Source: Euglena gracilis (Eukaryota). From it: a stretch of 64,000 nucleotides of DNA. This document shows, one piece after another, positions 1-52,725 of this stretch (position 1 is the first letter of the stretch; each line of letters begins with the position of its first letter). A program made the position numbers and the translations under genes. Location of the stretch: positions 30,756,395 to 30,820,394 of the forward strand of contig CP154954.1 in the NCBI GenBank assembly GCA_039621445.1, in the 5' to 3' direction. The notes below the pieces were generated by a model. That model was not told the DNA's origin, made no database searches, and was given only the letters and a program-made list of their open reading frames with translations.

Positions 1-1557
1 AATCGTGCCACGTCTTGAGCAACCTGGGCGACCCACAGTGCCATCACATTTTGCACGCAGGCATTTTGTGTGCACTAAAACAGTTCCAACTGCTCCAATT
101 CCCACCCCAAGCATGCACAACGCCATCGGATTTCATCGAGGTCACAAAGGAGCTGCAATGCACCTTGGGCGTACAGTTCTCTCCACTACCAGAGTGGGTA
201 GAGAGGAAGCAACCGGTGAACGTCGAGGATGACCACAGAAGTCAGCGTTGGTGGTCAGATAAGGTCCATCTAGCACGAAAAGATGCCCTGAAGAAGGTCC
301 TCCCACTCCGGGACAAGTGCCGGCTGCGCCTGCAATCCATGCCGCACACCACAGCCTGGGTGCAGACGGTCCCAAACAAAGGAATGGGGACGCGCATACA
401 AGCAACAAAGTACCGCCTGCTGCTACGGTGGTGGCTTGGAGCCAAGATCTCTCCATGGGCATCCGGAGCCCCATGCCCCATGTGTGGTGATTCCCTGGAT
501 CCCTTCGGGGACCATTTGCTATGCTGCAAAAAAAACAAACTCGTCTTGCGCCACAATGCAGTACGAGATGCGCTGGCAATGGTCCTCCGGGAGAATGGTG
601 TCCACACAAGGACAGAGGTGGCCGTCGGTGGAAAGAAGCGCCCAGCCGATGTGGCATTTGATGGAGTTGATCCTGCGGGGCCCTTGGCGGTGGACCTTGT
701 CGTCTTTCACCCGCTCCGAAAAGGGTTGTCCTGGGAAGAAGACCTAGCAGTGAAGAACATGGCCATGGCAGAACACAAGAAGATCACCAAAAACCAGCCA
801 ATATGCGAGTCGGCCGGATGGCTGTTCAGTCCACTGTCATTCCACCCATGGTCAGGTCTGGGCCCCCTGGGCTCAGGGCTACTTGGCCGGCTGGTGAAGC
901 AAGCACTAGGCGACAAACAAGGCTGGGCAAGGCAACACTTGGCCCAAGACATTTGGCACCGTATATCCTCGGCATTGATGGCGTTTGTGGCTGAGCAACT
1001 CTCTGCTGTGTTGGCAGCACGAGGGCACGAGGAGCTCCCGCTAACATCAGCGCCGCGGGATGCACCACCGCCTAGGACAGCACCAGGCCCACAACGAGGA
1101 ACCTCCGTGGCGGCGGTGGATATGCAAGGATGGCAAAGAGCATCCATGACCGAAGATGGAATGAATGTGGGCCCCATCCGCATCCAATGCACACGGCCGA
1201 GGTGAGAAACCTCGCAGATGGTAGCACCATCCCCCCCCACAAAAAAAAAGAAAGAAAGGGCCCACGCCCCTCAGGGTCAGGCCAACGGAAATCGAAGTGA
1301 AACCGCCCAAGTGACAGGCGGGTGCAACGGCACGCGGTGACCCGTCCCGACGGCAAAAGAACAGCACGCCGACACGGGCGACGCGCCCGCACGGGCGACG
1401 CGCGAGCACGGGAGCCGCGCGAGACGCGAGACGCGCGCCGTGCTGTGCCGTGCCGTGCCGTGCCGTGCCGTGCCGTGCCGTGCCGTGCCGTGCCGTGCCG
1501 TGCCGTGCTGTGCCGTGCCGTGCCGTGCCGTGCCGTGCCGTGCCGTGCCGTGCTGTG
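1..1557 (+). mobile_element. 3' fragment of CRE/SLACS-like non-LTR retrotransposon (zinc knuckle + restriction-like endonuclease), 3' UTR and (GTGCC)n end
   Basis: ORF 15-1205 has CPMC..DPFGDHLLCC, RHNAVRD, E..RPADV..AVD RLE motifs. Near-identical inverted copy at 12340-14150. This copy has an internal deletion of about 230 bp near position 57. Confidence 0.9.
1438..1557. repeat. (GTGCC)n pentanucleotide microsatellite
   Basis: About 23 units seen directly. Confidence 0.97.
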
Positions 1558-5880: not shown

Positions 5881-6475
5881 GGAGATAATCAATCACCAGG
5901 GGGGGTATTCTTCCTTTTTGTCGGGGGGTAAACTTCATTTTTCTCCCCCCCCAACAATTCACGGTGCCGGAGTTGCCCATTGTCCCCCATCACCAGGTTA
6001 GGACACGATTCGCCATCACACAACACCGACCGTAGTTGTGAAATGGCTGGGCAGCACCAGAAACGTGTGGGCTTTTTATAACCCCAATCCGAAAACTGAC
6101 AATAATCAGTGTCGATATAGGGCAGGTTTTTCACCACCTCCCTATTTCGCAAAAGACCAGTGCGGGGGTTCTCCAACCACCACAACTTGGGCTGAAAATA
6201 ATTTATAATTTCATGGGTTTTCTCCACCAGGGCATCCGCCTGGGAGAAATCCCTTGGCCTGGGGTTATAAGCCGTGGAATAAATATTACAGGGGGGACTA
6301 GCGGCAATAACCTCAAAAAATCCAACCGGGTATCGCCTGTAGTCCCAGGTCAAAATGTGTGTGTGGGGGTGGAAGTCCGTCCAAGGAGCATTTTCAATTG
6401 ACAAAACTTCATACCCCCGTTCTACCAACCGCCTCCCAACCGAACCTGTGCCAGCGAATAAATCTAATGCCTGAG
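5880..6475 (-). CDS. C5-cytosine DNA methyltransferase domain inside the Gypsy polyprotein
   Basis: Motif I LDLFAGTGS, motif IV ASPPC, motif VI WLENP, then DYCQF..YKKPT. The C-terminal RIPPLVIDYLL continues in the pol frame after a homopolymer frameshift near 5945. Confidence 0.88.
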
Positions 6476-6649
6476 GTCGCTGAGCTGGTGGCAGGGGGTT
6501 GGGTTGTGGCAGATTTGAATGCAAAACGGGAACCCTTGAACATTTTCCTTCCCTCCAGGAGTAACGAGTCCGATTCAAAAATCTGGGGGGCTGATCCATA
6601 GAATGTTTTCCCCCACACCCTGAATCAGCCATAAAATCCTGTACAGCCC

Positions 6650-9600
6650 AGTTTTTTGAATCAGAAGAATTTACACCGTTTTCCTCACAGGGGGGAGAGA
6701 CACGGCCATGGGCAGCCCCCCCCTTCTCAAACTGCCCCTGGCCCCCCTATTGGGCCCCTGGGGGAGAAGAGGTGGGCCCACCCCCCTTTGACCATGCACC
6801 CCCCTTGCCCGAGGAATTTCGCTGAGTGGCTGGCTGCCCTTTACCCTTGGGCTGCCCCTTGCCTTTTCCATTATTTTGCCAAAATTCCTTAGATTTAGCA
6901 AGGGCCTCACTCAGCGGCTTGTTACACTCATAAAAATAATGCCCGCACTCCCCACAGTTGAAGCATGGATATGGGGACCTGCCCCTACCCGATGCCTGCG
7001 GGGTCCAGGTCTGCCCCCCCTTGCCTTGCCGGGCTGGGGGTGCTGGACTTTGGGTTCGCGACCATGAAGCTGCACCTGGCCGCGAAGACGAAGAATGGGA
7101 CCTGCCCCGCTGGGCTGGCTGGGCTGGCCCCTTATCTCCCTTTGGAGCTGGCTGTGGTGCAGATTTTGAGGTGTGACCCTGCCCCCCGGCTGCTGGTGTT
7201 GACACAGAGGTTGGGTTTGGCCTTTTTCCAACACCTGTATTTTCCCTGAGCCTTTTGTTGTCGATTTGCTGAATAATCTGGGAAAATGGTGCTGATTCAA
7301 AGCCAAATCCTGCTTCTCCCGAAGAGCTAACTTGCCCTCGGCAAAAGCAAACATTTCATCAACGGTCATTAGTTGTTCCACCAATTCAGTTTCCTTCCAT
7401 TTACGGCAGTTAATTTCAGTGCCTCCTCCGAAGAACTGAAATAAATAAGGCAAATGGCACCAGGGTTTTTGATAACCACCTTCCGTGGATCAATCCCCCC
7501 AGTGATCTGGCTCACACTCCTTTTAATCCCATCCACCGTGGGATTTGGTATCCCTGTGAGCCTGACAATGGGTTGTTTACGGGCTCGGTTATCCTCCTCT
7601 TCTATGCAAAACTTGCTTAAAAAAGGAGGAATTCTTTCCAAAAATAATCTCCGAGCCTCCCCGGCTGTGGCATCCTTAACATGGTGCCAGGCACTGCAAA
7701 ATTTAATCCAAAATTCTTGCAGATCAGCCCGGGTAATTTTTCCTTCGTTTACCATAGTTACCTCCTGCCATATTCTCCGAGCCGTTAGCCCCTTACTCGA
7801 GGCATAACGGTTCTGGAACTGAGCCAATATGGTGGGGTAACTTAATTTAGCTCCATTCAACCGATAGAGCCTGATTTCCTCCCTTAATCTGGGTCCTAAA
7901 CATGCCTCAAAAACCTGCAGCTTTTGCAAATCAGAATACGGTTTCCCTGATGTCAACCTGTCCCAGTAAAGATTCCAATCTACTTCAAAATCTTGCCAGG
8001 AAATGCTGCCCGATTCATCAAAATAGGGCTTAGCACCTCCCTGCAAAATTTCAAAAGCTACTGGGTCACCGATAAAAGGAAAACCCAACCCGTGTCCTGG
8101 GTTGGCTGCAGCCCCCCCTGTCCCGATAGGCCTAATCGAGAAAGCAGGGGCTGCAGAAATATGTGGAGGGACACACAATGACACAGAAGAAACCACTGCT
8201 GTGTCTTGCGTGTCCTCCAAAACAAATCCCCCCTCAATCACTAAGGGAGGGGAAATGTTTGAAACTGCAGATTTATTATGAGAAAAAATCTGATCTGAAA
8301 AAGCTGGGTCAGCACTGGGCACCGTGCTGGCCAGTGAGCTGGACTGAGGCTGCCCCAGGGGCTGCTGCTGTCCAGCCGACGGCAGGCTCAGCCCCATTGG
8401 CAGCCCGTGAGCAGGCTGCGGCTGGCCTGCTGGCTGGCTAGGCTGCTGGGCTAGCTGGACGACGGGCTGCTGGGCAAGCTGCTGCCCAGGCTGTGGCAGC
8501 CCCGCTGGGTGTAGGGGCTGCTGGCTGCCCTGCCGCAGCCACCACATGTCAGATTTTTTTTGCAAAACCCCTCTCGGTTCTGCAGTTGGGTGTACGGGTC
8601 CATTTTTTTGTAAATCCTGCAGCACTTTCTGTAACTCGAAAGTGTTCCCCCCAACTTTTGCAAGTCCCTGCCTTAATTCCTCCACCAGCCCACCAAATTT
8701 TTTCTCCTGGGAAAAAATCAGCCGATAAACACTCTTAAAATTCTGCTCACAATCCGTCAGCAGTTCTTGTATTTCTGAGTGTCGTTTCCCTACTTCATCT
8801 GAAATATTCTGGTGCAGTTTTTGAATACCCCCACCAAAACCATGGAGGGCTGTATTCATCGCTGAATTTTGTTCACCCAGCTGGCGAACATAATCAGCGA
8901 ACTGCTGGAGCTGCTGAGCCTGGCCCTGTACCGTACTACGCAGCGATACCAGGTCAGCCTGAACTTCAATGATTTTGGCAGCGACAACGGCCAGCTCTTG
9001 GAGAGTTTCTGCCTCCCCCCTCCTGAGCTGGCTGGGCGGCTTTAAAATTCTCAGCAAACCGCTGAAAATTTTTAAGCACGAGATCCTTAATTGGTAAGGC
9101 AGCCACCTGATTTTGCACTTGTTTCAAACTTTCCTGTGGCAGGCTGTCCAAAATTCGTAAAAATTCCTGCCTCAGGGCCAAAAACTGATCACAGCTCGAA
9201 GAAAACTGCTGGGCCAGATTTTCCTCAAAACTTTTTTCCTGCCCGACAAAATGTTCAAGTGCCTGTGCGTCAATTTTTTGCACAGAAATTTGCACCTGGG
9301 CCTCACATTTTTTCTCAAAAAGTTCAAAAATATGTTGGCAGTCAGCCCTGGCCGTTTCTTCGATTCGTGCAGCCATGTGCTCCACCAGGTGGATGTCGAC
9401 AGCGGGGGGTTGTTGTTGCTGCTGCTGCAGAACCCACTCTTCGTTGGCTTTTTCCAAAGCCAAAACCCGAAAAGTCAGGTGCTGCACTGTCCACTGGAGG
9501 TCTCTGTTACTTTGTAAAAATTGCCCCCAGGGGTCTTCAAATCCCTGATTTTGTGAACCCCCCCTGGGGGTGGCTTCAGAACTTTCATAGGCTGGGGGTT

Positions 9601-11441: not shown

Positions 11442-12005
11442 CTAAACCGCCCTTAAAAGGCCTTCTAAAAGGGAAAAACTCCGCCGCCCGGCGGTCGACC
11501 TCAAACGGTCGTCAGATCGTGTTTCCAGAAAATCCATTATCCAGTCCCAGCGTCTTTGTAGGAAGGTGGGGTTTTGAAAGATATTGCCCAGGGGTCGTCC
11601 AAGTTGACAGTCATGTGTTTCGATTCGCCAACGAGCCCAGAGGGGGAAGTTTTCCTGGCAGAGGTAGCACGTTACAAAGGGGAGCGTTGGTTGGATCTGT
11701 TGGTTGACTGACGTGCTTGGCCCTGAGGCTGCCGGCCTGGTGCGGGTCCAACGCCAACTTTGTCCATTTAGGCAAATGTCTTCCCAGACTTCCTCGGGGT
11801 TTTCTTGGGGGCGGGACCGGCCTGCCGGGGGACCAGGGTTTTGTTCAATGTCATGCGCCTGGCGGACCAGTTGTTTAGTCAGGTTGAAGGATTGAGGGGT
11901 GGCGGGTGGCGGGGGTTCCGAGTGAGGGGGGTTTGTTTGGACTAGGCTGTGGGGGGTGGTGCTGAGTTCCTTCGGGTTTGGTGATTTCCGGTCGATGATG
12001 AGCAA
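11442..12005 (-). CDS. Small ORF with 2A-like peptide (LVRQAHDIEQNPGP) and a putative CxxC..HxC zinc finger
   Basis: Exact D(V/I)ExNPGP consensus within 11829-11888. Confidence 0.6.
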   Translation of the reverse strand: MLIIDRKSPNPKELSTTPHSLVQTNPPHSEPPPPATPQSFNLTKQLVRQAHDIEQNPGPPAGRSRPQENPEEVWEDICLNGQSWRWTRTRPAASGPSTSVNQQIQPTLPFVTCYLCQENFPLWARWRIETHDCQLGRPLGNIFQNPTFLQRRWDWIMDFLETRSDDRLRSTAGRRSFSLLEGLLRAV

Positions 12006-12339
12006 GCCGAAGTGGTTTTTGGTTGGGCAGGGGTGGAAATGACGTTTTGGGAAAAGTACGGAGAGACTGCTGGAATTGGGGGTCCAGTCCTGAGGGAATC
12101 CCGGGTCAGATTTTTTTGGGTATCGGTGTTTTTTAAGGCCACAGGTTGGGGTGGACAGATTTTCCGCTGGTTCAGCTGAGTCAACTCCTGTTTTTGGGAA
12201 TGGGGGGGAAAAAGGTCCACTGGGTGGGAAAAGTGGGGGGGAACTGGGGGGGGGGAAGTGAACTCCAGTTTAGTGTTGGCTGTCTCCCGAACTGTAACAC
12301 AGGCTTCGACTGCAAAAGGAGGGCCAACGAACCAAGGTG

Positions 12340-12496
12340 AGCACGGCACGGCACGGCACGGCACGGCACGGCACGGCACGGCACGGCACGGCACGGCACG
12401 GCACGGCACGGCACGGCACGGCACGGCACGGCACGGCACGGCACGGCACGGCACGGCACGGCACGGCACGGCACGGCACGGCACGGCACAGCACGG
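12340..12496. repeat. (GGCAC)n microsatellite, the reverse complement of (GTGCC)n
   Basis: About 30 units seen directly. Confidence 0.97.
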
Positions 12497-14250
12497 CGCG
12501 CGACTCGCGTCTCGCGCGGCTCCCGTGCTCGCGCGTCGCCCGTGCGGGCGCGTCGCCTGTGTCGGCGTGCTGTTCTTTTGCCGTCGGGACGGCTCACCGC
12601 GTGCCGTTGCACCCGCCTGTCACTTGGGCGGTTTCACTTCGATTTCCGTTGGCCTGACCCTGAGGGGCGTGGGCCCTTTCTTTTTTTTTTTTGTGGGGGG
12701 GGATGGTGCTACCATCTGCGAGGTTTCTCACCTCGGCCGTGTGCATTGGATGCGGATGGGGCCCACATTCATTCCATCTTCGGTCATGGATGCTCTTTGC
12801 CATCCTTGCATATCCACCGCCGCCACGGAGGTTCCTCGTTGTGGGCCTGGTGCTGTCCTGGGCGGTGGTGCATCCCGCGGCGCTGATGTTAGCGGGAGCT
12901 CCTCCTGCCCTCGTGCTGCCAACACAGCAGAGAGTTGCTCAGCCACAAACGCCATCAATGCCGAGGAGATACGGAAATGTCTTGGGCCAAGTGTTGCCTT
13001 GCCCAGCCTTGTTTGTCGCCTAGTGCTTGCTTCACCAGCCGGCCAAGTAGCCCTGAGCCCAGGGGGCCCAGACCTGACCATGGGTGGAATGACAGTGGAC
13101 TGAACAGCCATCCGGCCGACTCGCATATTGGCTGGTTTTTGGTGATCTTCTTGTGTTCTGCCATGGCCATGTTCTTCACTGCTAGGTCTTCTTCCCAGGA
13201 CAACCCTTTTCGGAGCGGGTGAAAGACGACAAGGTCCACCGCCAAGGGCCCCGCAGGATCAACTCCATCTAATGCCACATCGGCTGGGCGCTTCTTTCCA
13301 CCGACGGCCACCTCTGTCCTTGTGTGGACACCATTCTCCCGGAGGACCATTGCCAGCGCATCTCGTACTGCATTGTGGCGCAAGACGAGTTTGTTTTTTT
13401 TGCAGCATAGCAAATGGTCCCCGAAGGGATCCAGGGAATCACCACACATGGGGCATGGGGCTCCGGATGCCCATGGAGAGATCTTGGCTCCAAGCCACCA
13501 CCGTAGCAGCAGGCGGTACTTTGTTGCTTGTATGCGCGTCCCCATTCCTTTGTTTGGGACCGTCTGCACCCAGGCTGTGGTGTGCGGCATGGATTGCAGG
13601 CGCAGCCGGCACTTGTCCCGGAGTGGGAGGACCTTCTTCAGGGCATCTTTTCGTGCTAGATGGACCTTATCTGACCACCAACGCTGACTTCTGTGGTCAT
13701 CCTCGACGTTCACCGGTTGCTTCCTCTCTACCCACTCTGGTAGTGGAGAGAACTGTACGCCCAAGGTGCATTGCAGCTCCTTTGTGACCTCGGTGAAATC
13801 CGATGGCGTTGTGCATGCTTGGGGTGGGAATTGGAGCAGTTGGAACTGTTTTAGTGCACACAAAATGCCTGCCATCCGTGCTGGTGCTTGGAGGACGGTG
13901 GGGACCTTGATTCCCAGCCCTGCCATGCGGAGTGGCAAGCTGCATTGGGCCCACTGGGATTCACTTGTCGATGGCTGGCCGATGGTGTCGTCCCATGCTC
14001 TGCGGATGACCCGATCTGCTGCTTGAAGAGGGCCCTGCAAGGCGTCTGACCGCAAAGCGCGAAGGAAATGCATGACCTTGCAAGCATCCAGACAGTACCG
14101 GAGCAAAATGTGCTGGCACTGTGGGTCGCCCAGGTTGCTCAAGACGTGGCACGATTCTTCAAGTTTGTCCACTACTGCTTGCATCTCCTTCTGGCGAAAC
14201 GTCGTCGTGGTTGGGTGCTCCACTGGAAAGCCGAGGACTCACAAGCCTTG
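12340..14250 (-). mobile_element. 3' part of CRE-like element, same family as 1-1557, inverted
   Basis: ORF 12955-14223 is nearly identical to 15-1205. A 4-nt deletion near 12975 frameshifts the C-terminus. Confidence 0.9.
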
Positions 14251-14953
14251 TCGGGGTGGGGGAAAGGCCGGCAGAGGGGACTGCGGCAGCACCCAGGGGA
14301 GGGACAGGCCCGCCCGGGCTCACCGAGGGAGAGATCCTTGGTGGTGTCTCCCTGGGATCACAGCCCATCGTAAACCCCGATAAGGTGTGGGCCAGCCTGT
14401 TGGTGCTTGGGGGAGTCGGAGTGGGGGAAAGGCCGGCAGAGGGGACTGCGGCAGCACCCAGGGGAGGGACAGGCCCGCCCGGGCTCACCGAGGGAGAGAT
14501 CCTTGGTGGCGTCTCCCTGGGATCACAGCCCATCGTAAACCCCGATAAGGTGTGGGCCAGCCTGTTGGTGCTCGGGGGAGTCGGGGTGGGGGAAAGGCCG
14601 GCAGTGGGGACTGCGGCAGCACCCAGGGGAGAGACAGGCCCGCCCGGGCTCACCGAGGGAGAGATCCTTGGAGGAGTCTCCCTGGGTCACAGCCCATCGT
14701 AAACCCCGATAAGGTGTGGGCCAGCCTGTTGGTGCTCGGGGGAGTCGGGGTGGGGGAAAGGCCGGCAGTGGGGACTGCGGCAGCACCCAGGGGAGGGACA
14801 GGCCCGCCCGGGCTCACCGAGGGAGAGATCCTTGGTGGCGTCTCCCTGGGATCACAGCCCATCGTAAACCCCGATAAGGTGTGGGCCAGCCTGTTGGTGC
14901 TCGGGGGAGTCGGGGTGGGGGAAAGCTCGGCAGTGGGGACTGCGGCAGCACCC
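14251..14953. repeat. 165-bp tandem repeat, about 4.2 copies
   Basis: The GAAAG anchor recurs at 14262, 14427, 14592, 14756 and 14921. Confidence 0.93.
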
Positions 14954-15628
14954 CGGCTGGTGCAGAAGGTGTTGCCTTTGCAGGGGTAACAGGGGTAACA
15001 GAAAGACTGAGGGGCGGGGTGGGGGGGGAACGGGAGGAGCAGTGAATAGCTGGTGAATTGGGCGGTGGAAAAAGGAGAAATTGTGATTTAAACAAGCAGG
15101 AGTGTCAAGCTACACCAAGCTGGCATTCAAATTTGGCGGTGTGGGTTGTCAGCGAAACTCGTTTGATTTGCTTTCTGAGGTGAGGGTTCGCGCGTGAGAC
15201 AGATGTACGGTGGTGGGGCGAACCGAGTCCACCGACCAGTGGCACAGCCTACTGGGTTTGCCAGATTTCGAAGGAGGAGGGCTATGTACAGATGGGCGCA
15301 GCCCATGGGCAGTGTGGTTGTGTGCGGTGGCAAGGTAGGGGGTAAGGGGGTTTAGCAGCGGGGCCAGTGGGCTTCAAGGCGGTCGTGTAAGTGCCAGGGG
15401 TCGACTGCTGGTGGGGTTGGTGCCCTTCGGGCAACCTGGTCCGTTATCGGGGAGATCACGTTCGCGGCTGTGGGGCATGGTTGTGGGCGGTGGTTGGGTG
15501 GCTTTGTGGGCCACCGTTTGGCGGCTTTGTGAGCCACCGTTTGGTTCCCGGGCCTCGGTTCATTTTTCCGGACGTTGTAGTGACCGGCGGGCGTGTTGAC
15601 GCGATCAACGCGGAGTCGGTCGGTGAGG

Positions 15629-18100
15629 TCAACGAAGGAAGTGTTTCGGGCGTAGCATCTGTGCCACTTGGCGGAAGAGGGCCAACGCGATAAGCTGATA
15701 GCCTTCGGCCTGTCGTGTGCAACGCACGTCACCCTGCTCCCACGTAGCGGTCCGTTTTACCATTCTGGTCAGTAGTTTGGCACTTTCCGGTCCCAGCCCA
15801 CCCCACGTGCCCATTGCCACAGTGGCGAATGACCAACCGCCGTTGCGACATGGGACATCGTATTTGGCGTGTTTCGCTTGCTCCCGACGCTTAAGGAAGG
15901 TTCTCCAGGGTTCCCGGGTCCCGCTTCTCTCCGCGGCTTGCCACCCGTGCGCAACGGTCAGATCGACAGCTGTGGGTTTGCCATCTTGCCAGGTGGCGAG
16001 CAATAGATCCGCTGGCCGGAGCGAGGTGTCCGGTTGATTGGGCACCTGAACTTCGCGCTGTACACTTTGGCCGTTTGCGGACAGGAGGTTAAAAAGGGCG
16101 TCCTGGACGGCATTGTGCCTGTTGGCGAAATTGTTCCGGATACAGCAAATCTCATGGTCACCATATATATCCGTGGTACTCTGGCAGCCTGCGCATGTCC
16201 CGTTGGCTTCAGCCAAGGGGAGGCCCAGCCACCAGTTCAGACCCAGGCGGTAGTCGGCCGCGTCAATTGTGGTGTGAAGGGCCTCGTTGGGTGTGGCGAC
16301 CATCCACCCGTGACCGATGCCATGCGCTTGCTCCATCAGCCGGGCTTGATCTCTTGCAGGGATCCGGCTCAGCAGACGGTCCACCGTGGTCCGGGCTAGC
16401 TGGGTCTGCCACCATCGCTGCGAGGTGTCATTACCCGAGGCTGAGGCGAAGGACGCGGTGGTTAGGAGCCGTTGGCTTTCGGGGTGCTGGGGGCCCAGCG
16501 TGGAACAGAGGTCGTTGGCGGGTTGCTGACAGATGCGTTCGGACAGGGCAGCGACGTAAGCAGGGCAGGCAACCTTCTTGTGTCCGTGGGTGTAGTAGTG
16601 GCATAAAGCCGCGGTGCGAGCCGCACCCTGACAGGCGGCGGGGATGCGAAGACCGCACCCGCCGTCAGAGAGGGGGAGGGCTGCCTGCTTTCGTTGGTCG
16701 GCGTTGAGTGCTCGGCCAAGGATGTCTTCAAAGGCGATGAAGATGGTCTCTCCGCACCGAGCGACTTCCTCTTGGGCCTCATAGGAGTCTGAAGCGCGTA
16801 GGAGGTGGTTTACCTTGCAACCGTCCAAGCAGGACCGGAGCAGGTGGTGCGCAAGCTGTGGATCAGAAACAGAGGTGACCAGGTCAGTGGCTTTCTCAAT
16901 TCGGCCCGTGGCTTCCGCCCAGGCAGCCGCCGTGTGGCCCGCGGTGGTTGGGAAGTCGACTGCAGCCGAGGACAGTGATGCCAGAGCCCTCGGTCCAGGG
17001 TACCAACTGGAGGTGCTCTCGCCCCGGAATGCGGGCTGCGGCAGGACCCCAGGCCACGCATTTGGCCAAATTCAGTTGCACCCCGGTACGTTCGCCCTCC
17101 ACTCGTAGAAAGTCCAGGCACTTCTGCAACATCGCAGGCTCACCGATCAGCAAGCCGTCGTCCAGGTACCAGGAAGACCAGAGCAGTTCCGCTTGTTGTG
17201 CAATTGTTTCAACTATGGTTTGGAGACCCACAGCGAAGCCAATCGGGCCCAAAGGGCAGCCCTGGTGCGTGCCCCTGGTGGATGGGAGAACCCGTCCGTC
17301 GCTGAACAAGTGCGCCAGTTGCCCGTACGCAAAGCGCAGGTAGTTGAACAGCGCGGGTGTGCGCGTTTGCGCTTCTTGGAGCAGCACCGTGCGGTCAAGG
17401 GTATTGAAGGCATTCTTCAAATCAACCTGCAAGACCGCCCAGTTGCCCATGGGGTCTAGCTTCCTGACCAAATTTTGGGCCGTGATGGCGACGGATTCAG
17501 CTGCGTTGGAGACTCCCACCCCAACTTGAAGGGGGCTCAACCGGGCAACTTGGTCCTTGGCGGTTCCGGTGTGAAGGAGCGCCTTTCCCACCAAGCGGCG
17601 GAGGGTTTCACCCACTGCGATCGGCCTTACCCCGTCATCCTTTTTGCGCAGGGGGGTCAGGTTAGCGGAGCACCAACTTGGGGCGTGGTCCGAAGGCAGG
17701 TTGCCCTCCACCCATGCTGCGGCCAGCAGGCCCAGTGCTGTCAGAAGGCGTGCGCCGTGACCAGGGCGGCGGACAGCGTCTTGTAAGTGACAGGGGCGCA
17801 GACCGGAGGGGCCGGGGGATGATGTGCGTGGGAAGCGCAAGATGGCCTCGCGCAAGAGCTCCTCCCACCGAATGCGTTGACCGTCTGGGAACGGCGGTAG
17901 CTTCCCCGGCAGGTTATTGGGGTTGACTGGCCGACCCGTTGGGTGCAGGTCCTGCAGCTTGGCCCACACTGCAGAGTCACTGGAGCGGTGCGTTCCCTCG
18001 GACAGAAGGACCTGCAGGGCTTTGGCTGGAGCACCTTCTCCACTGCGGGCGCGCCGGAGAACGTCGGACCGCAGGGGGCGGAGCTTCTCCACCGACGAGG
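15629..18100 (-). CDS. CRE-type reverse transcriptase + zinc knuckle + restriction-like endonuclease (frameshift near 16945)
   Basis: SSPGPSG, VRPIAVGETLRRL, QVDLKNAFN, QGCPLGP, WYLDD; CAGC..DHEICC, RHNAVQD, RPADLL..AVD. Confidence 0.92.
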
Positions 18101-19089
18101 GCGGGCGCCGCCGGAGAAGCGGTCGGCACCGAAGAGGGGTGCGAGATGCGTGCCTTTTTTGGCACTGGCCACCTGCGAGGACCAGCTTGGGTGGCCGACG
18201 GCGGAGTCGGTTGTCATAATGTCGTCGGCTGGCCCGTCACCTCAGCTGGGTGCGCTGCTGGAGATGGCTGTGGAAACATCTCTGCTGCCCTGCGGCTTCC
18301 CGGGCGTTGACTGGCGGACCGAGCCAGCTTGGGGAAAGCCATGACGCTGAGAGTGTCGCCGGGTGTGCTACTCGATGATAGCGTCGGCCATGGTCTCCGT
18401 CACCTCACGCTGGTTTGCAGGGGGGACGAGGACAGGTTGGCGCGGCAAAGGAGGATCTCCTGCGATGCCGGCTGCGGTGGAATAATGAGACGCGGGCGTG
18501 TGGGGAGTGTGGCGGAGGTCGATGCCGTTGCCGGGTCTGGGTGGATGGTGCGGCACGTCGGTCGCTGGTTTGCTCCGTGAATAGACGGCGCGGGGTGCGT
18601 GCGACTGCCGTACTGATGCGTTGCTCTGCCGGGTGCGTGCTGCCGGTGTCCGAGGTCCAGGGTGCTCTCGATGCAGGTCAGAAGCATCCCGCGACCTGTA
18701 GCGGTTGTGTGGGGTAGGTGTGGGGGTGGTGCGGGGGGGGGGGGGGGGGGGGGTGGGGGGGGGGCAGGGGGGGGGGGGGGGGGCAGGGAGCTGCGCAGCA
18801 GGACGTGTCACGGGTCACGCGTATTGAGGCGGCGGGGGGGGGGGGGGGGCAGAAAGGGCATGGGGGGGCTGGAAGCGAGAATCCCAGAGACCATCGCCCC
18901 ATAGGACGAAATCACGGCCACCCACGTTGAGTTCATACGGACGTTCAGGGTCAGAGGCATCGCGGACCCATTCGTTCATGGGGGGCAGATCGTAGGAGGA
19001 GAGGTACGGGACGCGACGGTGACGAAGTGGCTGGGCAGGAGGAGGCGGGTGCTTCAGCCCTTCGGATGTCCGCGGAGGGTCATGTGGTG

Positions 19090-19500
19090 GTGGCTTGATG
19101 TGGAGGTAGAGACACCAAGTGCGCCAGCGAGGGTGTGGAAGAAGCGCAGTGCCGCGGACGCGGAAGAGGGGGGCCTTAGGCAGCAGCGCGGACCGCAAGG
19201 CCGCCGCCTGCAGGTGTGGCAGGGCAGGGGACCATTCTGGAGCCCGGACCACGGCGTGTATACCATGTCGCAGGCCATGTTGGAGCAGTTTCGGCAGCAT
19301 GCAGAACGGCGGGTTCATCCACAGGGCCTCGGGACGACACCATGGCTGGTGGAAGGCATTCGTGGCCTCATCCCAGAAGGAGGCGAACTGGCTGTTGTGC
19401 CTGTCCGCAAAGGCGTCCACCGACGGCCATCTGTCCGGGCTGATGCCGAGTTCGTGAAGGCACCATGGCACCCACATGGGGTCCAGCATGTAGTCTGAAA
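19090..19500 (-). CDS. Dam-like N6-adenine DNA methyltransferase domain
   Basis: DYMLDP..SVDAFADRHN..F..NAFHQPW..LWMNPPF..APEW. Same motif series as the DIRS MT domain at 60370-60700. Confidence 0.82.
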
Positions 19501-19840
19501 GCGAGGAGGAAGGTCCTGGCAGGGGGTTGATATCACCGTCTGTCAGGATCGCCTCTCCTCTCCCCGTAGCTGGGTGATCCCCGTAGATGTCGGCCTCTGC
19601 TTCCAACAGCACTGGGCAGCTGGACTGGTGCTGCAGGCACCAACCGGCTCCAGACGTGGTAGTGTGAGACCCGCAGAGGGTGCACCGGACGTAGTAGTAG
19701 GTAGGCAGCAAAGGCGCGGGTCGCCCCCCGTCAGGGCCCGGCAGGGGCATGTCGGTGAGCCTTATGAGAAACAGGTCACTCATTTGGAGGCTGCGTAGGA
19801 TGTGCAGGAGGTCTCCAGAGTCCGGTCCTGGAAGACAACA

Positions 19841-19894
19841 GGGTCCGGGATTAGACTCAATGTCTCCGCATGTCAGCAGATTTTCCCCCCGCCC
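19841..19894 (-). other. 2A (StopGo) peptide GRGENLLTCGDIESNPGP
   Basis: Exact D(V/I)ExNPGP core; closely resembles T2A (EGRGSLLTCGDVEENPGP). Confidence 0.85.
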
Positions 19895-20969
19895 CTGGCA
19901 AGGCAGCGCGGCACAAGACAGGTAGGGTACACGAGTCGACACTGCCTTGTTCTGGCGGTGGTAGAGCACCTCTATGTCCGTCCAGGTGCAGCGAAGGCAG
20001 CACACTTTGTGCAGCCAGGGAGGAGGGCGGTCGGGGATGTCCGGCCACGCTGCCGTGCATGCCACTGGGGGGTAGGGGGCGAGACAATTCTTGTGCCCGA
20101 TCCGGGGTCGTGGCGGCGATGGGGGGGGTGGTGGGACAGCTGGGGGCGGCCGTTTCGGCCGCGCCGGGGGGGGCGACCACTGGAGGCCCTCCTCCCGGAG
20201 ATGACCCGGGCGCTGGGCATGGAGCGCCTGAGCGAGGCGGATGGCCTCCCCCCTGGTCGGGATGCGGCGCGGGCAAGGCGAGGGAGGCGGTGCAGCGGCT
20301 GGCGCCCTTGCGCTCTCCAGGGGGGCGCCCCACAAGCGGTGACGGCGCACGAAGTCCAGCTCCCGGCCGTGGAATTCCCACCGCTCTATGAGGAGCCGTA
20401 AGGTGCGGGCCAGCTTTTCGGTCCAGGTCTCCCCCCCTGCCTGCCGCCTGCTCTCCCTCCGAGCCAAAAATTTGGCCCGGAGTTCCCCCCGGGGGGTCCG
20501 TCCGCAGGGGCGGTCTTCTGCGCTCGGGGGGTCAGGTGGGCCTTCCTCCGGGCTTGGGGGAGGGGCCGGCACCGTTTCCTGCCACAACCCGGGCGGCTGT
20601 TCCACCCAGCCACCGAGGAACGTGGCGCCGTACTCCCACTGAGTACCATCCCAAGCATAGGGGGGCCGAGGGGGGGGTGCTGCGAAGATGCGGAAAGGGG
20701 CCGACTTGTTCCAGCCGGGGCCACTTTCATAGGCCAGGTCAAGCAGGGGGGCAGGAAGAGGGGACCAGGGGCCCCCAGCCTCGCTTCCATCTGCTGTGGG
20801 GTCCTCCGTTCCCCTTTGGGGGGTTGGGCCGTCTTGGGGGTCTCCTCCCTGCTGGCGACGGGTGGGCCTGAGCCTTGGCCCAGCCACCCCGCCGACCGAG
20901 CTGGGGGTCTCCTCTCCAGCAGTTGCCAATCTGAAAGGGCTCCCCGGTTCCCCCACTCCAATTGTATTC

Positions 20970-22635
20970 TGTGAGCGCGGGCCAGATTTGAGATTTATTT
21001 TTGTAAGAACTGCCAGCAAAAATTAAGCATTGCCTCACAGAGATTTTGGGGAATTACATTTTTCACAGGCAAGCTGGCAAACCGTGTACAAGTTTGCGTG
21101 GGACTCTGAACTGGATTCAAAGTATCAAGTCTTGTCTTCTGGGGTGCTGTGTGGGGAAGTTTGGGAAGAAGACCCCTGAAGGCTGAAAAGTTGGAATTGG
21201 CCAGAAGTCTGATGTGGTGAAATTATCTGGACACACTGGACCATCCCCCAACTTGCACAAACTTGTATGATATTTGCAGTGCAGAAAAGCCCCGTACAAA
21301 CGTACCTGTGGAGCCGGAAGACACTCAGAAGTGAAATGTCATGGAAGTGGCGGGCCAGCTCAGCAGCAGAAGGGGACAAGGCAGAGGAAGGCACCAGTTG
21401 GCACACAGTGAGATGCTGTGTTGGGCCACCATGATCAACTCTCCAGATCAAGCTAGCAGCGGGTGATCCTGGAGATGGTGCTGCTGTGGGTCTTGGTTGG
21501 AGCCTGGGCTGAAGGACAGACGGATGTCAATCACAGCCTGCCATCATCATCAATAATCTATCTCAATCTCCAAAATGTCTGTCAAGATGTCATTTCAGGG
21601 TCAAGTTCAAGTCAAAATGTCAAGTTCAAGTTCAAGATCCCAACGAATCTGTGGTGGAAGACAGTTGTCATTTCAAGATTTCAATTTCCCAAGGTCAAGC
21701 TGTGAAGGAGTTATGTCATCACTTTCAAATTTTCAAGTTCCCAAGGTCAATCTGTGGAGGAGCCAAGGTGTTGTCCAAGATTTCAAGTTCCCAAGTTCAA
21801 GATGTCAAGTTTCAACGTCATTGGTCAAGTTCCCCTTGGAGATTTCGGCGCGAGGAGCCTGACCTCGTAAAAAACAGTGATCAGGGTTGTGCAACAGCCC
21901 CACAAATGCACATCTGGTGACCATCTTCGAGTTCGTCTACCTGTTGCTGCTGTGATGGCTGTGGTGTGTGCCGCCTCCCCGTTCGGTGCTGGGCCGCTTC
22001 AAGGGGGCTCTGCTCCGGTTTGGCTCGGCGGGGGTCGCCGAAGCCCCGGCTGGACCCCATGGGGGGTCATGTTGTACGGGGTAGGTCGTATGACATGGCT
22101 CTCTAAGGTGGAAAGGCTGGGGTGGAGGTAGGCGGGCCCCACATGGTATTTATCTGTGGATTTGGACGTTTACGATTATCTGTGGATTCGAAGATTTGGC
22201 AATTTAATTTCGAGAACCGCCATTCGCCACTTTTGCATGTCGCTGCTGCGTGTGGGTGTGTTGTGTGTTGAATTTTTATCTCCGGCCCGCTCATTTTTTT
22301 ACTTCCGTTTTGGACAATTGCCTGGCAATTGTTTTTGGGAAGGGGGGTGTGAGCGCGGGCCAGATTTGAGATTTATTTTTGTAAGAACTGCCAGCAAAAA
22401 TTAGGCATTGCCTCACAGAGATTTTGGGGAATTACATTTTTCACAGGCAAGCTGGCAAACAGTGTACAAGTTTGCGTGGGACTCTGAACTGGATTCAAAG
22501 TATCAAGTCTTGTCTTCTGGGGTGCTGTGTGGGGAAGTTTGGGAAGAAGACCCCTGAAGGCTGAAAAGTTGGAATTGGCCAGAAGTCTGATGTGGTGAAA
22601 TTATCTGGACACACTGGACCATCCCCCAACTTGCA
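20970..22635 (+). mobile_element. Non-autonomous LTR element (TRIM-like) with 288-bp LTRs
   Basis: Direct repeats 20970-21257 and 22348-22635, each TG...CA; ATTC on both flanks; polypurine GGGAAGGGGGG before the second LTR; non-coding interior. Confidence 0.9.
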
Positions 22636-23903
22636 ATTCGCCTTGGGCTGTTCCAGTCCCGACCCATCTGGGAGGGGGGGGTGGTCCCCGATTTTTTCCG
22701 GATGCTTTTCTGTTTCAAACATGATTGGGCCATCTGGGTCATCAATTCCCTTGTCGGGATGTTTTCCAGTTTCTGGGGGTGTCTCCCCCCAGACCTGTGG
22801 GGATTCCAACTCAGATGGGAGGGGGGGGGTGGCTTCATGCGCAATGGGATAGCGACAGCAATGTGGAGAGTGGTGGTGTTTCGTGTATTTTTTAGAGGGG
22901 CGATGTCGGTGATGTCGACTATGATGTCGATGTGGGCACCTTCTCCTGGCTGTGGGTCGTTTCACCTGGCTGCATGATGATGATGATGCTGAGGAGGGTG
23001 ATGATGAAGTAGAGGGTGACGATGATGTGGTTGAGGTCGATCTTGTCGATGCTCGGGGTGGGGAATATGGAGGAGGTGGCTGGGCTTCCTGGTGCATGTC
23101 GAGGGGGGTGGGCTGCAGGAGTCTGGTTTGGTTGTGCAGCATTTGCTGCAGCTGCTGCATCTGTTGCAGCTGCTGTTGATGAAGCTGTAGCAGCGCCATG
23201 TCCATGTCCGGCTTGCTTCTGCTGTTCTTTTCCATCTCCACCCTGCTCCTCGGAGTCAGGTCCATGTCCCACATGCCTCGTTTGAGGACTTGATCTGTGT
23301 TAGATGATGATGATGCTACAGCTTTGGGCTCCATGCGGGGCTGGGGTTCCCGCCATCTGGGGCTGCAGGGCTGTCTCTGTCTCTCCTGCTGCCTGGGCCC
23401 TTCTGCATGGGGGGACCGTCTGGTGCTGCGGGGCTGTCTCTCCCGCTGCCTGGGCTGTCTGGGGCTGCAGGGCTGATACTCCTGCTGCCTGGGGTCATCA
23501 CGTTTGGGGCTGCAGCGGGGCTGATACTCCCGCTGTCCCCGTCTGTCGCCACTGCTTCGGGGCTGGTACTCCCGCTGCTCGCAGGGATCGGGGTACTCCT
23601 GGTAGCTCTGCTCAATGTCCAGCTTCCTTCTTTTTCTGGACTGCTGCCTCATGGCCTGTCTCTGGGCCTTGTCTTTGTAGCGGTCGCCATATCGTTGACG
23701 GAGTGCCTCTTCCCAGGCTTCATCAGAGGCGTACTGCTCTTCTTGTCTGGAACGCCTCCTCACTTCGTGGTACTTCTTCCCATCGTCCATCGCCAAATTC
23801 TTGAGTAACACACTCGCAATGTCCTGAAACTTCAGATTCCCCAGGTAAATGTTAATAAAGCTTGACCCCATCCCGGGGCTTTCAGGACAGGTTATGCGGA
23901 AGA

Positions 23904-23928
23904 CGAAAAAAAATAGACACTCAGAAAG
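23904..23928 (-). other. Euglenid spliced-leader exon relic
   Basis: CTTTCTGAGTGTCTATTTTTTTTCG matches 25 of 26 nt of the Euglena gracilis SL as I recall it. It is not followed by the GT donor of an SL RNA gene. Confidence 0.9.
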
Positions 23929-24467
23929 AGGGTGAGGCCGCTGTTGATCAGCTTCCGGAGTTCTTCGTCCACGTGAGTCCACGTGAGTATGAGAAAGCTA
24001 TGCGGTGGTGGGGCGAACCGAATCCACCGACCAGTGGCACTGCCTACTGGATTTGAGTGTTCAGGGGAGGAGGGAGCTATGTACATTTGAGGAGTGCAGG
24101 GGAGTAAGGCTATGTACAGAGGCGACAGTGAGGGAAGGTGAAACGGGTGAGCTTAGGGAATAGGAAACAGGGCGAGATGAGGTCGTTGTTGATCAGCTTC
24201 CGGAGTTCTTCGGCCACGTGAGTGGTACCGGCGGGTCGTAATCCAGTGGTTCATCGCGACATCCTTGCCCAATGGCCTTGGTCGTTTACCGACACGTGCC
24301 AGACTCAAATGGTCTCAGGAGAAGCTGTGCAGGTCGGGTGAACGAATCGATGCGGGAAGGAGGCGGACCGTAGGAAAAGCAGAGCAACGCCGCTGAAGAT
24401 CAGCCGATGCCTTGTATCCAGTGGGGCCTGGCCGCGAACTCGAAAACGATATTGCCGCTTTAGCGGC

Positions 24468-27130
24468 CTTTTTTTTTTTTTTTTTTTTGCAACAGGCGCG
24501 TGGCACCGATGGCGTTTTTAGAGTGAGTATGGATGATGTGAGTTGCTTCCACCATCATCTGTCAGCTCCTCCGCGCACTGACCCCATGCAAGCTGCTTTG
24601 CCAGCTCCCTGGCCAAGGCCATGCTGAGGCCCTGCCAGCAATTTGGCCTCTGCGGCCCTTCTTTCCCACGAGTCGTGTTGTCCCACCAGCAGGCGAACAC
24701 ATTGGCCAACGAAGCTGAGGGCTGCGTCTCCCATGCCTCCGTAACAATCAAGGACGAAGGGGATAAACGTCCAGCCCCTCCGTTTGCATCCTTCGCCATA
24801 CTTCTTGAATTTTTCCTCCTCCTGTGACTGGTGCCATTTCCCAAGCTCCTCTGTCCCAGGTCGGACACGGGAAGGGGCAAGGGGGTGACGGACAGTCACA
24901 TCGATGGCTGCTGGGCCATTGGCGTCATACCGCATCACGAACACGTCACCTGGACGAGAGCCATCAGGCGCACTTTCTTCTCTCCTGGCCGGGAATCCAG
25001 CTCTTTGGGCCAGGCCCAAGAGATAAGATTGCACCGCCCCGTGTCGCCTCACAATGTTATTTCGGTGGCAACAGACGAGATGGTGGCCTCTTACATCAAG
25101 GGGGTTGTGGCATCGCGGGCAGCCTAGCGGTCCATCGCCGGGAGTTACCACAGGTGCACCCACGGACCACTGAATCAGGGCCTGGAATTCTCTTGTTGGG
25201 ATGAGGGTTTTCAGCGCAGCAGAGGGCATCACTGATGCCCATGCCATGGCGTGGGGCTTCAGTTGGCATGTCAGCTTCAGTTTGTCCACTCCGGAGAGGG
25301 AATCGTGTAATGCTGTTTGTCGGGCCGTTGCGCACTTCTGGCCCCAGAATTTCTGGGGGATCACATCATGAGGAAGTATCTCGTGCCTTCGGGGATCTTC
25401 CAGGAAAGTTTTGACGACTGGTGGGAGTTCACATGATGTGCTGATGTCCCCGACTAGAGTCGCGAAATTTGTTGGCAGCGGGTTCGCTCCGTTGAGGGGT
25501 GGTAAGTCCAGGATGCGTTCGCCGCGAACTAGAAAATCCAGTGTGGCAGCCCATCTGGCATTCGTGCGTTCGGTGCTCGGATCTCGAATGCCCAACCCCC
25601 CAAGGCGTACAGGAAGCGTGACCTGGGTCCATTGATCTTCCTCAAGAGGCCGTCCGGCAATGACACTCATCGTGTTTCGCAAGGTTTTGCTGAGCAACGT
25701 GCACTGGGCGGTTGCCAGGGTGATTGGTGTGGTCCTCAAGAGATCGTTGACTTTGCAAGCATCCAAGCACATTCGGAGAATTGTGAACTGGATGTGTGCA
25801 GAAGGTACCTTTTGCAGGAGAGAGCATGCTTTCAAGGCCGCCTCACACCGTCCGAACCACACTCGATCTGCAAAGGTTTGATCTTCTGGGTGACAGACTG
25901 GCACTCCCAAAGACTTGAGGCCTGACCCCGGTACGTAGGGAGTGACAGGGATGCGCTGCAGCACACTTACCCCTTGTGGGATCGACGCCCACTCTGGGTT
26001 GAAGGCGGGGCCCCACAGTGTGCATTTCTCGGCATTCAAGGCAACACCAATCGGGGGTCCCTTCTCCAACACGAGGTGCACTACGGCTTCCAGTTGGCGC
26101 CGGTTCCCCACGACGTGGGCGTCATCTAAGTACCATGCCTGCCAGCCACACACTGCATGGATTTCCTCCACGAGGCTTTGGATTGCAAGAGCGAAGGCAG
26201 CCGGTCCACAGGGGTCCCCTTGCTGAACTCCCGTTTGGCTTCGAAGGCACGCATCACCAAGGAACAAGCTGGAGTGCTCGGCGTAGCAGGTCTCTAACCA
26301 CGTCACCATTTCTGGACATCGTTCGCGGGATGCCTCCAACAGGGAGTCCCTTCGGATGCAGTTGAACGCGTTGGAGAAGTCTAGCTGCAGAATTCCCCAG
26401 TCCTGGGACCCTCCTTGATGTAGTGTGGTGACAATGTGTTGGAGGCCCATTCCAATGAGCCCGCATGCATCCGGACAGCCCACACCGAACTGTCCCGGCA
26501 GCCCTTCCAGCGTGAATTTCCGGACGGGCGGTTGGCGCATCAGGACTTTGCCCACGAGTCTTCTTAGGCACTCTCCTGAGGCGATGGGGCGGGTGCCTTC
26601 TTGTGCGGGATCCGGTGTGGCAGGGATGAGGTTTCCCGCGCTGTCCACAGCGGTCGATGGCTTCACCTTGCGCAGGGCTGTGAGGCGTGCGGATGTGAGA
26701 ATCTCGGCCGCGCCAGCAGGCCATCCCTCGTTGATGCACCTGTACACAAAATTCGAGAGTCCCTCCAACAGTGTCTCCGCCTGGCCTCCTGCCTCTTTGC
26801 CAAGCATGTCCTTCAGGTGATCCGGCTTCAGTCCGGATGGGCCTGCCGCAGACTCCTTTCCGAAGCTGAAGACGGCCCTGCGTACCAAAGACAGCCGGTC
26901 CCTCCTCTCGTCCTCATCGGAAGGCGGCGGCACACCTTTCCGCTTGTCCGGGGGCCCTCGGCCCGGGGGCTCTTCGGAAGGGTGGAGATCCTTCAAGCGT
27001 TGGCGAACAACGGGGTTTTTGTTATCCTGTACGCCGTCGGACAGCAGGAATTGGCACGCTTTGCCAACTGCACCCTTGCTCACCAGGTGTTCAAGTCTGC
27101 GAAAGAGGGTTCGCTAAATTCAATAGGATG
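24468..27130 (-). mobile_element. 5'-truncated CRE-like non-LTR retrotransposon (RT + RLE)
   Basis: ORF 24555-27083: SAAGPSG, RPIASGECLRR, QLDFSNAFN, QQGDPCGP, WYLDD, CPRC..HHLVCC, RRHGAV, RPGDV..AID. A-run at 24468-24488. Confidence 0.92.

Positions 27131-29141: not shown

Positions 29142-52725
<23,584 letters not shown>

Follow-up and report, generated by a model that had tools for sequence, protein, structure and literature searches.

What is a predicted N6-adenine methyltransferase doing upstream of the reverse transcriptase and endonuclease of a retrotransposon, and does it belong to that retrotransposon at all? The question is raised by a 64,000-nucleotide stretch of Euglena gracilis DNA (contig CP154954.1, positions 30,756,395 to 30,820,394; called the window below and numbered from its first letter), in which an open frame of the minus strand holds a Dam-like methyltransferase (MT) domain behind 2A peptides, with a reverse transcriptase (RT) and a restriction-like endonuclease (RLE) further downstream. 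Retrotransposons without long terminal repeats (non-LTR elements, or LINEs) copy their RNA directly at the chromosomal target and normally encode an RNA-binding protein, ORF1p; at the NPG/P junction of a 2A peptide, the ribosome releases the upstream product and goes on translating. We interpret the locus, with a probability of about 0.8, as a decayed copy of an RLE-type LINE whose family sets the MT, Cys/His modules and RT-RLE apart by 2As. Its intact relatives have one long open reading frame (ORF) that contains small Cys/His modules, an MT of about 140 residues with a Cys-rich extension, and RT-RLE, in an order that varies. An earlier note on this DNA had read a canonical 2A, a Cys/His-rich spacer, a degenerate 2A and a Dam-like domain from the interval 19090-19894; all of these are present on the minus strand, and that interval stops within the element, the whole copy of which spans about 15207-20969.

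The element and its modules

The evidence that the MT and the RT-RLE part belong together comes from relatives of the window proteins (P0001-P0003 are proteins of window ORFs; all other P numbers are relatives). In P0006, a single ORF of 1294 residues whose RT and RLE are 55% and 43% identical to those of the window, the MT (residues 1-130) is followed by a Cys-rich extension, a canonical 2A at residue 275, the RT (479-846) and the RLE (849-1293). P0014 and P0155, from two contigs, have the order MT, 2A, short peptide, 2A, RT, RLE, and P0027 has an N-terminal part, MT, Cys/His module, 2A, RT and RLE. Full forms with MT, 2A, RT and RLE were also found from the RT-RLE side (P0162, P0167 with 5 member sequences and P0177 with 11). 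Partial forms of the architecture are seen in P0010, P0024, P0035, P0041 and P0056. Because MT, 2A, RT and RLE share single unbroken ORFs in these metagenomic proteins, the MT is not a nested foreign piece, and the earlier note's attribution of MT and RT-RLE to one non-LTR family withstood the test that it had itself proposed. The parts of the window copy are as follows.

15207-20969, minus strand: RLE-type non-LTR retrotransposon, full extent of the decayed copy (about 5.8 kb); delimited by a repeat boundary at the 5' end and by contig ends and a shared block at the 3' end
20090-20968, minus strand: Pro-rich N-terminal open frame without Met (reading frame)
19895-20089, minus strand: Cys-rich module before 2A no. 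1 (CLRC at 19988-19999); P0001 residues 312-394 match P0174, P0164, P0160 and P0041
19841-19894, minus strand: 2A no. 1, canonical, ending in GDIESNPGP; found by motif search and fitting the family consensus from 83 2A sites
19565-19840, minus strand: Cys/His module (C-x2-C...H...C) between two 2As, conserved in relatives
19511-19564, minus strand: 2A no. 2, degenerate (GDINPLPGP against GD[VI]ExNPGP); found by motif, with a canonical 2A at the same place in relatives
19073-19510, minus strand: predicted Dam/PCIF1-like N6-adenine MT domain (DAFA 19406-19417, NPPF 19304-19315); Pfam Dam, structural model and 296 relatives
18818-19072, minus strand: MT protein, C-terminal extension with a beta region of three strands and a conserved ...LWD.R... 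block, matching P0004, P0162, P0008, P0005 and P0010
18815-18817, minus strand: TGA that closes the MT frame, the same frame reopening beyond it
18063-18814, minus strand: decayed linker with poly-C (poly-Pro) tracts (tblastn; lowest depth in all three DNA runs)
18653-18702, minus strand: 2A no. 3, broken, with GRGMLLTC in one frame and HPGP in the next (read from translations)
16965-18062, minus strand: RT, with RVT_1 core at 17049-17648 (E 4.1e-14), aligned with P0006 residues 479-846
15632-16960, minus strand: C-terminal linker of the RT, CCHC knuckle (16145-16195) and PD-(D/E)xK RLE, in a frame different from that of the RT (motifs and profile)
16106-16120, 16001-16018, 15953-15970 and 15860-15874, minus strand: RLE motifs RHN, RPAD, D.T and K, respectively
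15207-15628, minus strand: 3' untranslated region, with a terminal block (15207-15260) of 84% identity to 23990-24085

The upstream modules lie in a stop-to-stop frame of 735 codons (18815-21022, minus strand), whose length would arise by chance with a probability of about 1e-7 from base composition alone and whose first Met is residue 414, downstream of 2A no. 1. Behind it, the order of RT, CCHC knuckle and PD-(D/E)xK endonuclease, together with the lack of a Pfam match to Exo_endo_phos, the apurinic/apyrimidinic endonuclease (APE) domain, in the window element, identifies it by its sequence as an RLE-type non-LTR retrotransposon. In a profile of 23 RT-RLE relatives, C660, C663, H673, C677, H686, D737 and K769 are invariant; the alignment of this profile with solved R2 proteins extends over RT and RLE alike (E 1e-35; positions 165-872 of the 917 in the profile), and that with LINE-1 ORF2p over the RT only (E 4e-15). 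The relation to R2 is a distant one, since P0006 as a single sequence finds no PDB chain at E<=0.01. A search of the ESM Atlas with the RT-RLE part returned generic RVT_1 clusters only. Those RT-RLE relatives that come with a name belong to Ephydatia, Porphyridium, Symbiodinium and Cymbomonas; they are 26-35% identical and unclassified. The label "CRE-like" that the element had been given is not borne out: R2 is its closest solved relative, the flanks are diverse, and neither a spliced-leader gene, the insertion site typical of CRE, nor any other Rfam RNA family was detected in the window. Contigs that end at the 3' junction (15207) have unlike flanks (agreement 0.36-0.70), some of which belong to other families, as the terminal block is shared.

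An alternative origin for the arrangement would be a chimera produced by nesting, in which the MT segment of a DIRS or LTR element merely came to lie upstream of an unrelated RT-RLE LINE. The window is indeed a pile of nested retroelements, this MT family is known chiefly from DIRS and LTR elements, and MT and RT are out of common frame in the window copy. We nevertheless regard such a chimera as very improbable: two archives supply the single MT-2A-RT-RLE ORFs, on contigs independent of one another, one type of 2A is seen both around the MT and before the RT, and Pfam detects no tyrosine recombinase, RNase H or integrase in P0001-P0003, just as the DIRS traits Phage_integrase and RNase H are missing from P0006, P0014 and P0027. 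The phylogeny against DIRS MTs suggested in the earlier note points the same way. In a tree of 131 MT domains, obtained by a quick maximum-likelihood search, all 8 LTR/DIRS-linked rows fall within two supported clades, which comprise 60 rows and not one of the 42 LINE- or 2A-linked domains, so that the LINE- and 2A-linked MTs stand apart.

How often the modules occur together can be approached from either end. A window-type RT lies behind the MT in 8 of 150 MT relatives, among the matches listed (296 found). Starting from RT-RLE, P0006 and its 66 relatives make up 67 proteins; the 25 rows with at least 36% identity include 12 with a 2A and 6 with an MT, many of these rows beginning at or just before the RT and being uninformative, and the 42 rows below 36% identity include one with a 2A and none with an MT. 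P0160, which lacks an MT and shares 86-90% identity with P0006 in the RT, was considered as a case of cargo swap and rejected; it is better read as a 5'-truncated copy, because its first 675 residues consist of low-complexity repeats and the homology begins only beyond the MT.

The 2As themselves are well defined. No. 1 (GRGENLLTCGDIESNPGP, 19841-19894, minus strand) has the D(V/I)ExNPGP signature and is in frame on both sides; the strict pattern D[VI]ExNPGP occurs at 2 sites in the six-frame translation of the window, compared with 0 in 30 shuffles. No. 2 (GRGEAILTDGDINPLPGP, 19511-19564) has the canonical length and departs from the signature, N, P and L replacing E, x and N, so that the E and N of ExNPGP are missing. 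A canonical 2A is found directly before the MT in P0020, P0009, P0037 and metagenome locus L001, the only informative one of the 5 short loci in the metagenome scan. No. 3 (18653-18702) is cut across two frames by a frame break, and relatives have a canonical 2A between MT and RT at exactly this position. At least one strict 2A is present in 47 of 158 proteins with an MT domain, the maximum being five (P0043); 2As lie downstream of 25 of the 42 MT domains followed by more than 150 residues, and upstream of 17 of the 61 preceded by more than 60. Across 83 family 2A sites, G at -8 and D at -7 are found in 92% and V/I at -6 in 98%, E at -5 and NPGP being set by the search pattern and thus no evidence of conservation. 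The module boundaries of relatives are 2As of the ...LL(T/S)CGD(V/I)ExNPGP type, which we take to be close in sequence to the well-used viral 2As. Of the proposal that the modules are separated by ribosome skipping, the first half stands, as 2As do bound the modules; the skipping itself would be expected by analogy with other 2A motifs.

The spacer between 2A no. 1 and no. 2, which the earlier note had described as Cys/His-rich, is a genuine module, with CTLC at 19673-19684 followed by H and C, and is conserved in relatives. It sits between two 2As in P0056, P0177, P0045, P0022, P0027 and P0024. Module order evidently varies, because in these six relatives the Cys/His module is behind the MT, whereas in the window copy it precedes it. 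Its AlphaFold (AF2) model (predicted local distance difference test, pLDDT, 72) has strands and a helix around the Cys/His residues, and its highest-ranking fold matches, which include spliceosomal and TUT chains with zinc fingers, are too weak (best Z 4.0) for the fold to be named.

A second canonical 2A of the window, DIEQNPGP (11829-11852), is found in an ORF without Pfam match (11442-12269, minus strand), where a C-x2-C...H-x-C finger comes after it and no RT could be found downstream. Possibly this ORF is the 5' portion of another 2A-bearing element, severed by the next insertion.

The methyltransferase domain and its substrate

The hidden Markov model search that the earlier note had proposed gave a match of the window MT to Pfam Dam (PF05869) with E 3.1e-5 and 24.1 bits, below the curated gathering cut-off of 28.1, which is passed by P0006 (28.3), P0027 (31.5) and P0162 (29.0) and narrowly missed by P0014 (27.3). 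With the 231 residues that follow 2A no. 2 as the query, an exhaustive HMMER search found 296 proteins at E<=1e-3, 46 at E<=1e-10 and 2 at E<=1e-30. P0004 was the sole match among proteins of near length, and P0001 residues 440-735 matched none of the longer proteins, which the later exhaustive search shows to be a limit of sensitivity and not an absence. In an alignment of 59 MT sequences, N66 is invariant, and D32, F34, A52, W57, W64, P67, P68, F69, P91 and W129 are conserved in at least 90%. The NPPF of the window copy (19304-19315) fits the catalytic (N/D)PP(F/Y/W) pattern, and NPP[FYW] is retained in 11/11 LINE-linked MT rows and 29/31 rows with a 2A only (40/42 together); 36/42 of these domains have D.F[AGS] and, correctly spaced after it, NPP[FYW]. 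Relatives run on from the MT extension into a CP.C..W.WPW.C motif, and this Cys-rich end has been lost from the window copy.

Whether the segment has a methyltransferase fold was set beforehand as a test, and in the predicted structure it does: the AF2 model (mean pLDDT 85, above 94 over residues 10-140, with the strands of the C-terminal extension at residues 192-210) has a class I S-adenosylmethionine-methyltransferase fold. The six best Foldseek matches in the PDB are all PCIF1/CAPAM (best E 1.3e-3, probability 0.97-1.0). In a structural search against representatives, PCIF1 again came first (Z 9.3, root-mean-square deviation 3.0, 122 residues aligned), followed by DIMT1 (8.3), ErmC' (7.9), EcoDam (7.8) and T4 Dam (7.5), and nearly all of the top 50 rows were methyltransferases. 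The nearest solved fold is therefore an RNA cap methyltransferase and not a DNA Dam, a point that the earlier note had missed. The succession of motifs, (D/E)xFA...N..F, NPPF and ...PEW, resembles that of PCIF1 (6irx and relatives), and the family profile matches PCIF1 by sequence only marginally (E 0.1), with a corresponding motif pattern; unlike PCIF1, the MT of the element has no WW domain and no helical cap-binding domain. The MT domains of DIRS elements have likewise been placed in the PCIF1 clade (Iyer et al. 2016, PMC4738411; this and the papers below are cited for those parts of their text that were accessible to us).

These features suggest how the family might work. Ribosome skipping at each 2A, if it occurs as in other 2As, would free the modules as separate proteins from one mRNA, and the 2A cassettes would take over from the usual pair of ORF1 and ORF2, with small Cys/His proteins and the MT in the role of ORF1p, acting on the nucleic acid of the element. 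More tentatively, the predicted MT may be an active enzyme, and its most likely substrate would then be adenine, methylated at N6, of the element's RNA itself or of the RNA/complementary DNA (cDNA) intermediate during target-primed reverse transcription. We favour an RNA or hybrid substrate because of the PCIF1-like fold, the location of the MT at the position of ORF1p and the negative DNA assays of related domains in E. coli.

Other roles for the MT have to be weighed against this one. The MT could instead write N6-methyladenine (6mA) on the new insertion or on the target DNA, so that the copy would mimic the 6mA-marked active chromatin of the host, as proposed for DAM-LTR elements. The Pfam family is that of phage DNA Dam, EcoDam, T4 Dam and DpnM are among the fold matches (Z 6.7-7.8), and in several lineages DAM-LTR copies are reported to exceed other LTR elements in 6mA and transcription (Fernandez-Moreno et al., bioRxiv 10.64898/2026.05.21.726589); an RNA cap methyltransferase nonetheless heads the fold matches, most of the high-ranking rows are RNA methyltransferases, and heterologous eukaryotic DAMs left no 6mA in E. 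coli, and we consider this possibility a real but distinctly less probable one. Somewhat less probable still is that the MT is catalytically dead and serves as a nucleic-acid-binding or PCIF1-mimicking module in place of ORF1p, which would accord with the proposal made for DIRS MT domains (Iyer et al. 2016, PMC4738411), with the shortness of the domain (about 140 residues, without the helical cap-binding part of PCIF1) and with the negative published activity assays. The conservation of its catalytic residues (the NPP[FYW] and D.F[AGS] counts above, and the N66 that is invariant in 59 sequences) makes a mere binder the less attractive explanation. The pairing of MT and endonuclease in one element also brings to mind a restriction-modification system, in which the MT would shield DNA from the element's own RLE; an R2-type endonuclease, however, nicks its target once for priming, and nothing hints at methylation-sensitive cleavage, which makes such a pair highly unlikely.

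A number of observations count against a 2A-partitioned LINE with a working MT, and temper our estimate. The window copy is broken, so that no function is shown at this locus, and its MT does not reach the Pfam gathering cut-off. The fused ORFs were called on short metagenome contigs, most of the RT-RLE relatives in which an MT could be looked for have none, and the depth of the MT part is roughly half that of the RT in DNA runs; the other four RT-RLE copies of the window also have no MT, although these are 5'-truncated or of other families and hence uninformative. The MT tree is a quick search with support from SH-aLRT, an approximate likelihood-ratio test, only. In the RNA run X24, 36 reads from about 5% of the run, all of them partly matching, are too weak for a claim of expression. 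DIRS MT domains were judged catalytically inactive (Iyer et al. 2016, PMC4738411). Published activity assays on related eukaryotic DAMs are negative or inconclusive, with no gain of 6mA in E. coli (bioRxiv 10.64898/2026.05.21.726589).

Going further than the 2A-partitioned architecture, we can imagine, as a speculative extension that we hold possible but not probable, a whole clade of RLE-type LINEs in which an array of 2A cassettes replaces ORF1/ORF2 and in which an MT, captured independently of the DIRS-to-LTR transfers, methylates the element's own transcript (at a cap-proximal or internal adenosine) or the nascent cDNA. If so, a LINE would write a host-like "self" or "active" mark on itself, to the benefit of RNA stability, translation or escape from host surveillance. 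An MT in a LINE would in any event be a clean system for asking whether the "Dam" domains of retroelements act on RNA, hybrid or DNA.

Comparison with known elements

The claim that the architecture is undescribed found support: no RLE-type LINE with an adenine MT behind 2As was found in the full-text literature, supplements, Repbase Reports and subscription journals lying outside the search. DAM-carrying retrotransposons are known among DIRS and LTR elements, with transfers from DIRS to LTR proposed (Fernandez-Moreno et al., bioRxiv 10.64898/2026.05.21.726589), so that the earlier note was right to call such MTs known from DIRS elements but drew the circle too narrowly in calling them typical of these. 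The likeness to DAM-DIRS and DAM-LTR lies in an MT of the same Dam/PCIF1-like family, with its NPP(F/Y) pocket, inside a retrotransposon polyprotein, and distant matches of the window MT are themselves in elements resembling these (P0096, Gypsy-like, P0135, P0084 and P0101). Unlike them, the carrier here is an RLE-type non-LTR element without integrase, tyrosine recombinase or RNase H, and its MT is set off by 2As, a term for which the preprint was not searched. The same preprint lists Euglena elements with L1-like RTs as odd DAM cases; in its accessible text "endonuclease" is absent and "non-LTR" appears once, in a general definition. The present element adds RLE-type non-LTR elements to the retrotransposons with adenine methyltransferases, which bears on the proposed DIRS-to-LTR transfers.

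Among LINEs, the closest parallel for the MT is SymbioLINE-DNMT (de Mendoza et al. 2018, PMC5890265), which also has a methyltransferase upstream of the RT, and for which its authors also suggest RNA or cDNA as a substrate. It differs in being APE-type and in encoding a C5-cytosine DNA methyltransferase (DNMT) in a separate ORF1, and the passages of that paper that were searched make no mention of a 2A. For the 2As, the parallel is with APE-type LINEs (L1Tc, Ingi, Rex1, L2, Crack and CR1; Odon et al. 2013, PMC3708506, and a 2026 survey, PMC13405545), which have D(V/I)ExNPGP in frame within the polyprotein, usually before an enzymatic protein. These carry one 2A, whereas here up to five per protein (P0043) delimit modules. 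RLE clades have been described as single-ORF elements with RT and REL-endo (Odon et al. 2013, PMC3708506), and the 2026 survey deals mostly with APE-type ORF2p, the word "methyltransferase" not occurring in its accessible text (PMC13405545). The family thus makes repeated use, in an early-branching type of LINE, of 2As reported mainly from APE-type LINEs, and would in this way obtain several proteins from one ORF; its short, highly conserved 2A variants are candidate tools for co-expression. With the R2 protein (9nl3, 9dou, 8gh6) the element shares RT, linker, CCHC knuckle and PD-(D/E)xK endonuclease, but it has no ribosomal DNA target and no detected zinc-finger/Myb N-terminus, and carries the additional 2A-delimited modules.

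State of this copy and its neighbours

At the 5' side, a high-copy repeat of 288 bp (20970-21257, 99% identical to 22348-22635) stops at 20970, where one contig of run X9 also departs from the window sequence; at the 3' side, many contigs with unlike flanks stop at 15207, and the terminal block is common to a second RT-RLE element of the window, element C, likeness to which extends to about 15290 in the 3' untranslated region. P0001 residues 19-311, the Pro-rich part, have no match among 223 fetched proteins, and this frame may be what is left of an upstream module that was 5'-truncated or has diverged; the copy as a whole is probably 5'-truncated. As it stands the copy cannot work, because of the stop after the MT, the two defective 2As (no. 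2 and no. 3), the scrambled linker before the RT and the break between the RT and RLE frames near 16961. Behind the TGA (18815-18817) the frame is open again, through poly-Pro encoded by poly-C DNA, and the earlier note had wondered whether these tracts hide a continuous MT-RT frame. None was found by tblastn with P0006 residues 198-479, the split remnant of a 2A being all that was recovered: beyond that remnant, 18875-18080 shows no likeness to the roughly 280 residues that relatives have there, and the linker (18063-18814) holds no recognisable counterpart of their pre-RT region of about 190 residues.

Other copies were sought in three DNA runs from coded organisms A and C, in which word depth is summed and is not a copy number. 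In all three runs many short contigs of 90-100% likeness cover each bin of the element, and the family is therefore multi-copy. A further run, X20, contained 0.06 of the words. In run X1, word depth is 183-516 over RT-RLE, 89-251 over the MT and 2A part and 11-68 over the linker (17998-18825). Most other copies have two additional bases at 16961 (depth 233/292 in X1 and 20.6/20.6 in X9), and some have four at 18864, just before the end of the window MT frame, where relatives enter the CP.C motif. These observations fit the window copy being a decayed member of a family with better-preserved copies.

The bin that contains the terminal block (15100-15306, block at 15207-15260) has a word depth of 19086 in X1, and in the DNA runs about 35 to 100 times the depth of the element body. 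This excess could possibly come from heavy 5' truncation, from sharing of the block among families or from short non-autonomous elements; as RNA, the block has a z-score of -0.21 against shuffles, which does not support a special structure. A block of about 98 bp at its 3' end (23990-24085) is shared with the studied element by an intact RT-RLE ORF of 852 codons (24555-27113, minus strand), which belongs to a third family, 28-35% identical to the studied element, and is 5'-truncated with respect to full-length relatives.

Another RT-RLE family is represented by two 5'-truncated copies, 57-1557 (plus strand) and 12377-13872 (minus strand), which are mutually inverted and 99% identical over 1501 bp. 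Both end in a (GCCGT)n tail (1437-1557 and 12341-12497), and directly behind each tail lies a retroelement on the same strand, the RT-RLE copy 1563-3386 in one case and the 2A-bearing ORF 11442-12269 in the other, which suggests that retroelements inserted into the (GCCGT)n microsatellite tails. The reading frames of an LTR- or DIRS-like retroelement (3929-7355, minus strand) include a gag-like one that contains a CCHC knuckle (6747-7355), a pol ORF (3929-5989, minus strand) that carries RVT_1 and the beginning of an RNase H, and an ORF (5889-6746, minus strand) in which C5-cytosine methyltransferase-like motifs can be made out by eye (DLFAGTG, SPPC, ENP). Its Pfam DNA_methylase match is weak (E 0.0086, 16 bits, below the cut-off); if real, this would be a second methyltransferase-carrying retroelement in the window.

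Of the two copies of the 288-bp repeat, which are 1090 bp apart, that at 20970-21257 adjoins the 5' end of the studied element and the other overlaps the end of a low-complexity ORF of 500 codons without Pfam match (22495-23997). A tandem repeat of 165 bp (14250-14953, 4.3 copies, 97% identity) separates the 3' end of the studied element from the next RT-RLE copy, and an interstitial telomere-like repeat, (CTAACC) x 10.7, is found at 42566-42629. Lastly, exon-like ORFs at about 29200-30140 (plus strand), with motifs of a Ser/Thr protein kinase recognisable by eye (GQGSYG...; ...REIKLM...), suggest an intron-bearing host gene beside the retroelement cluster.

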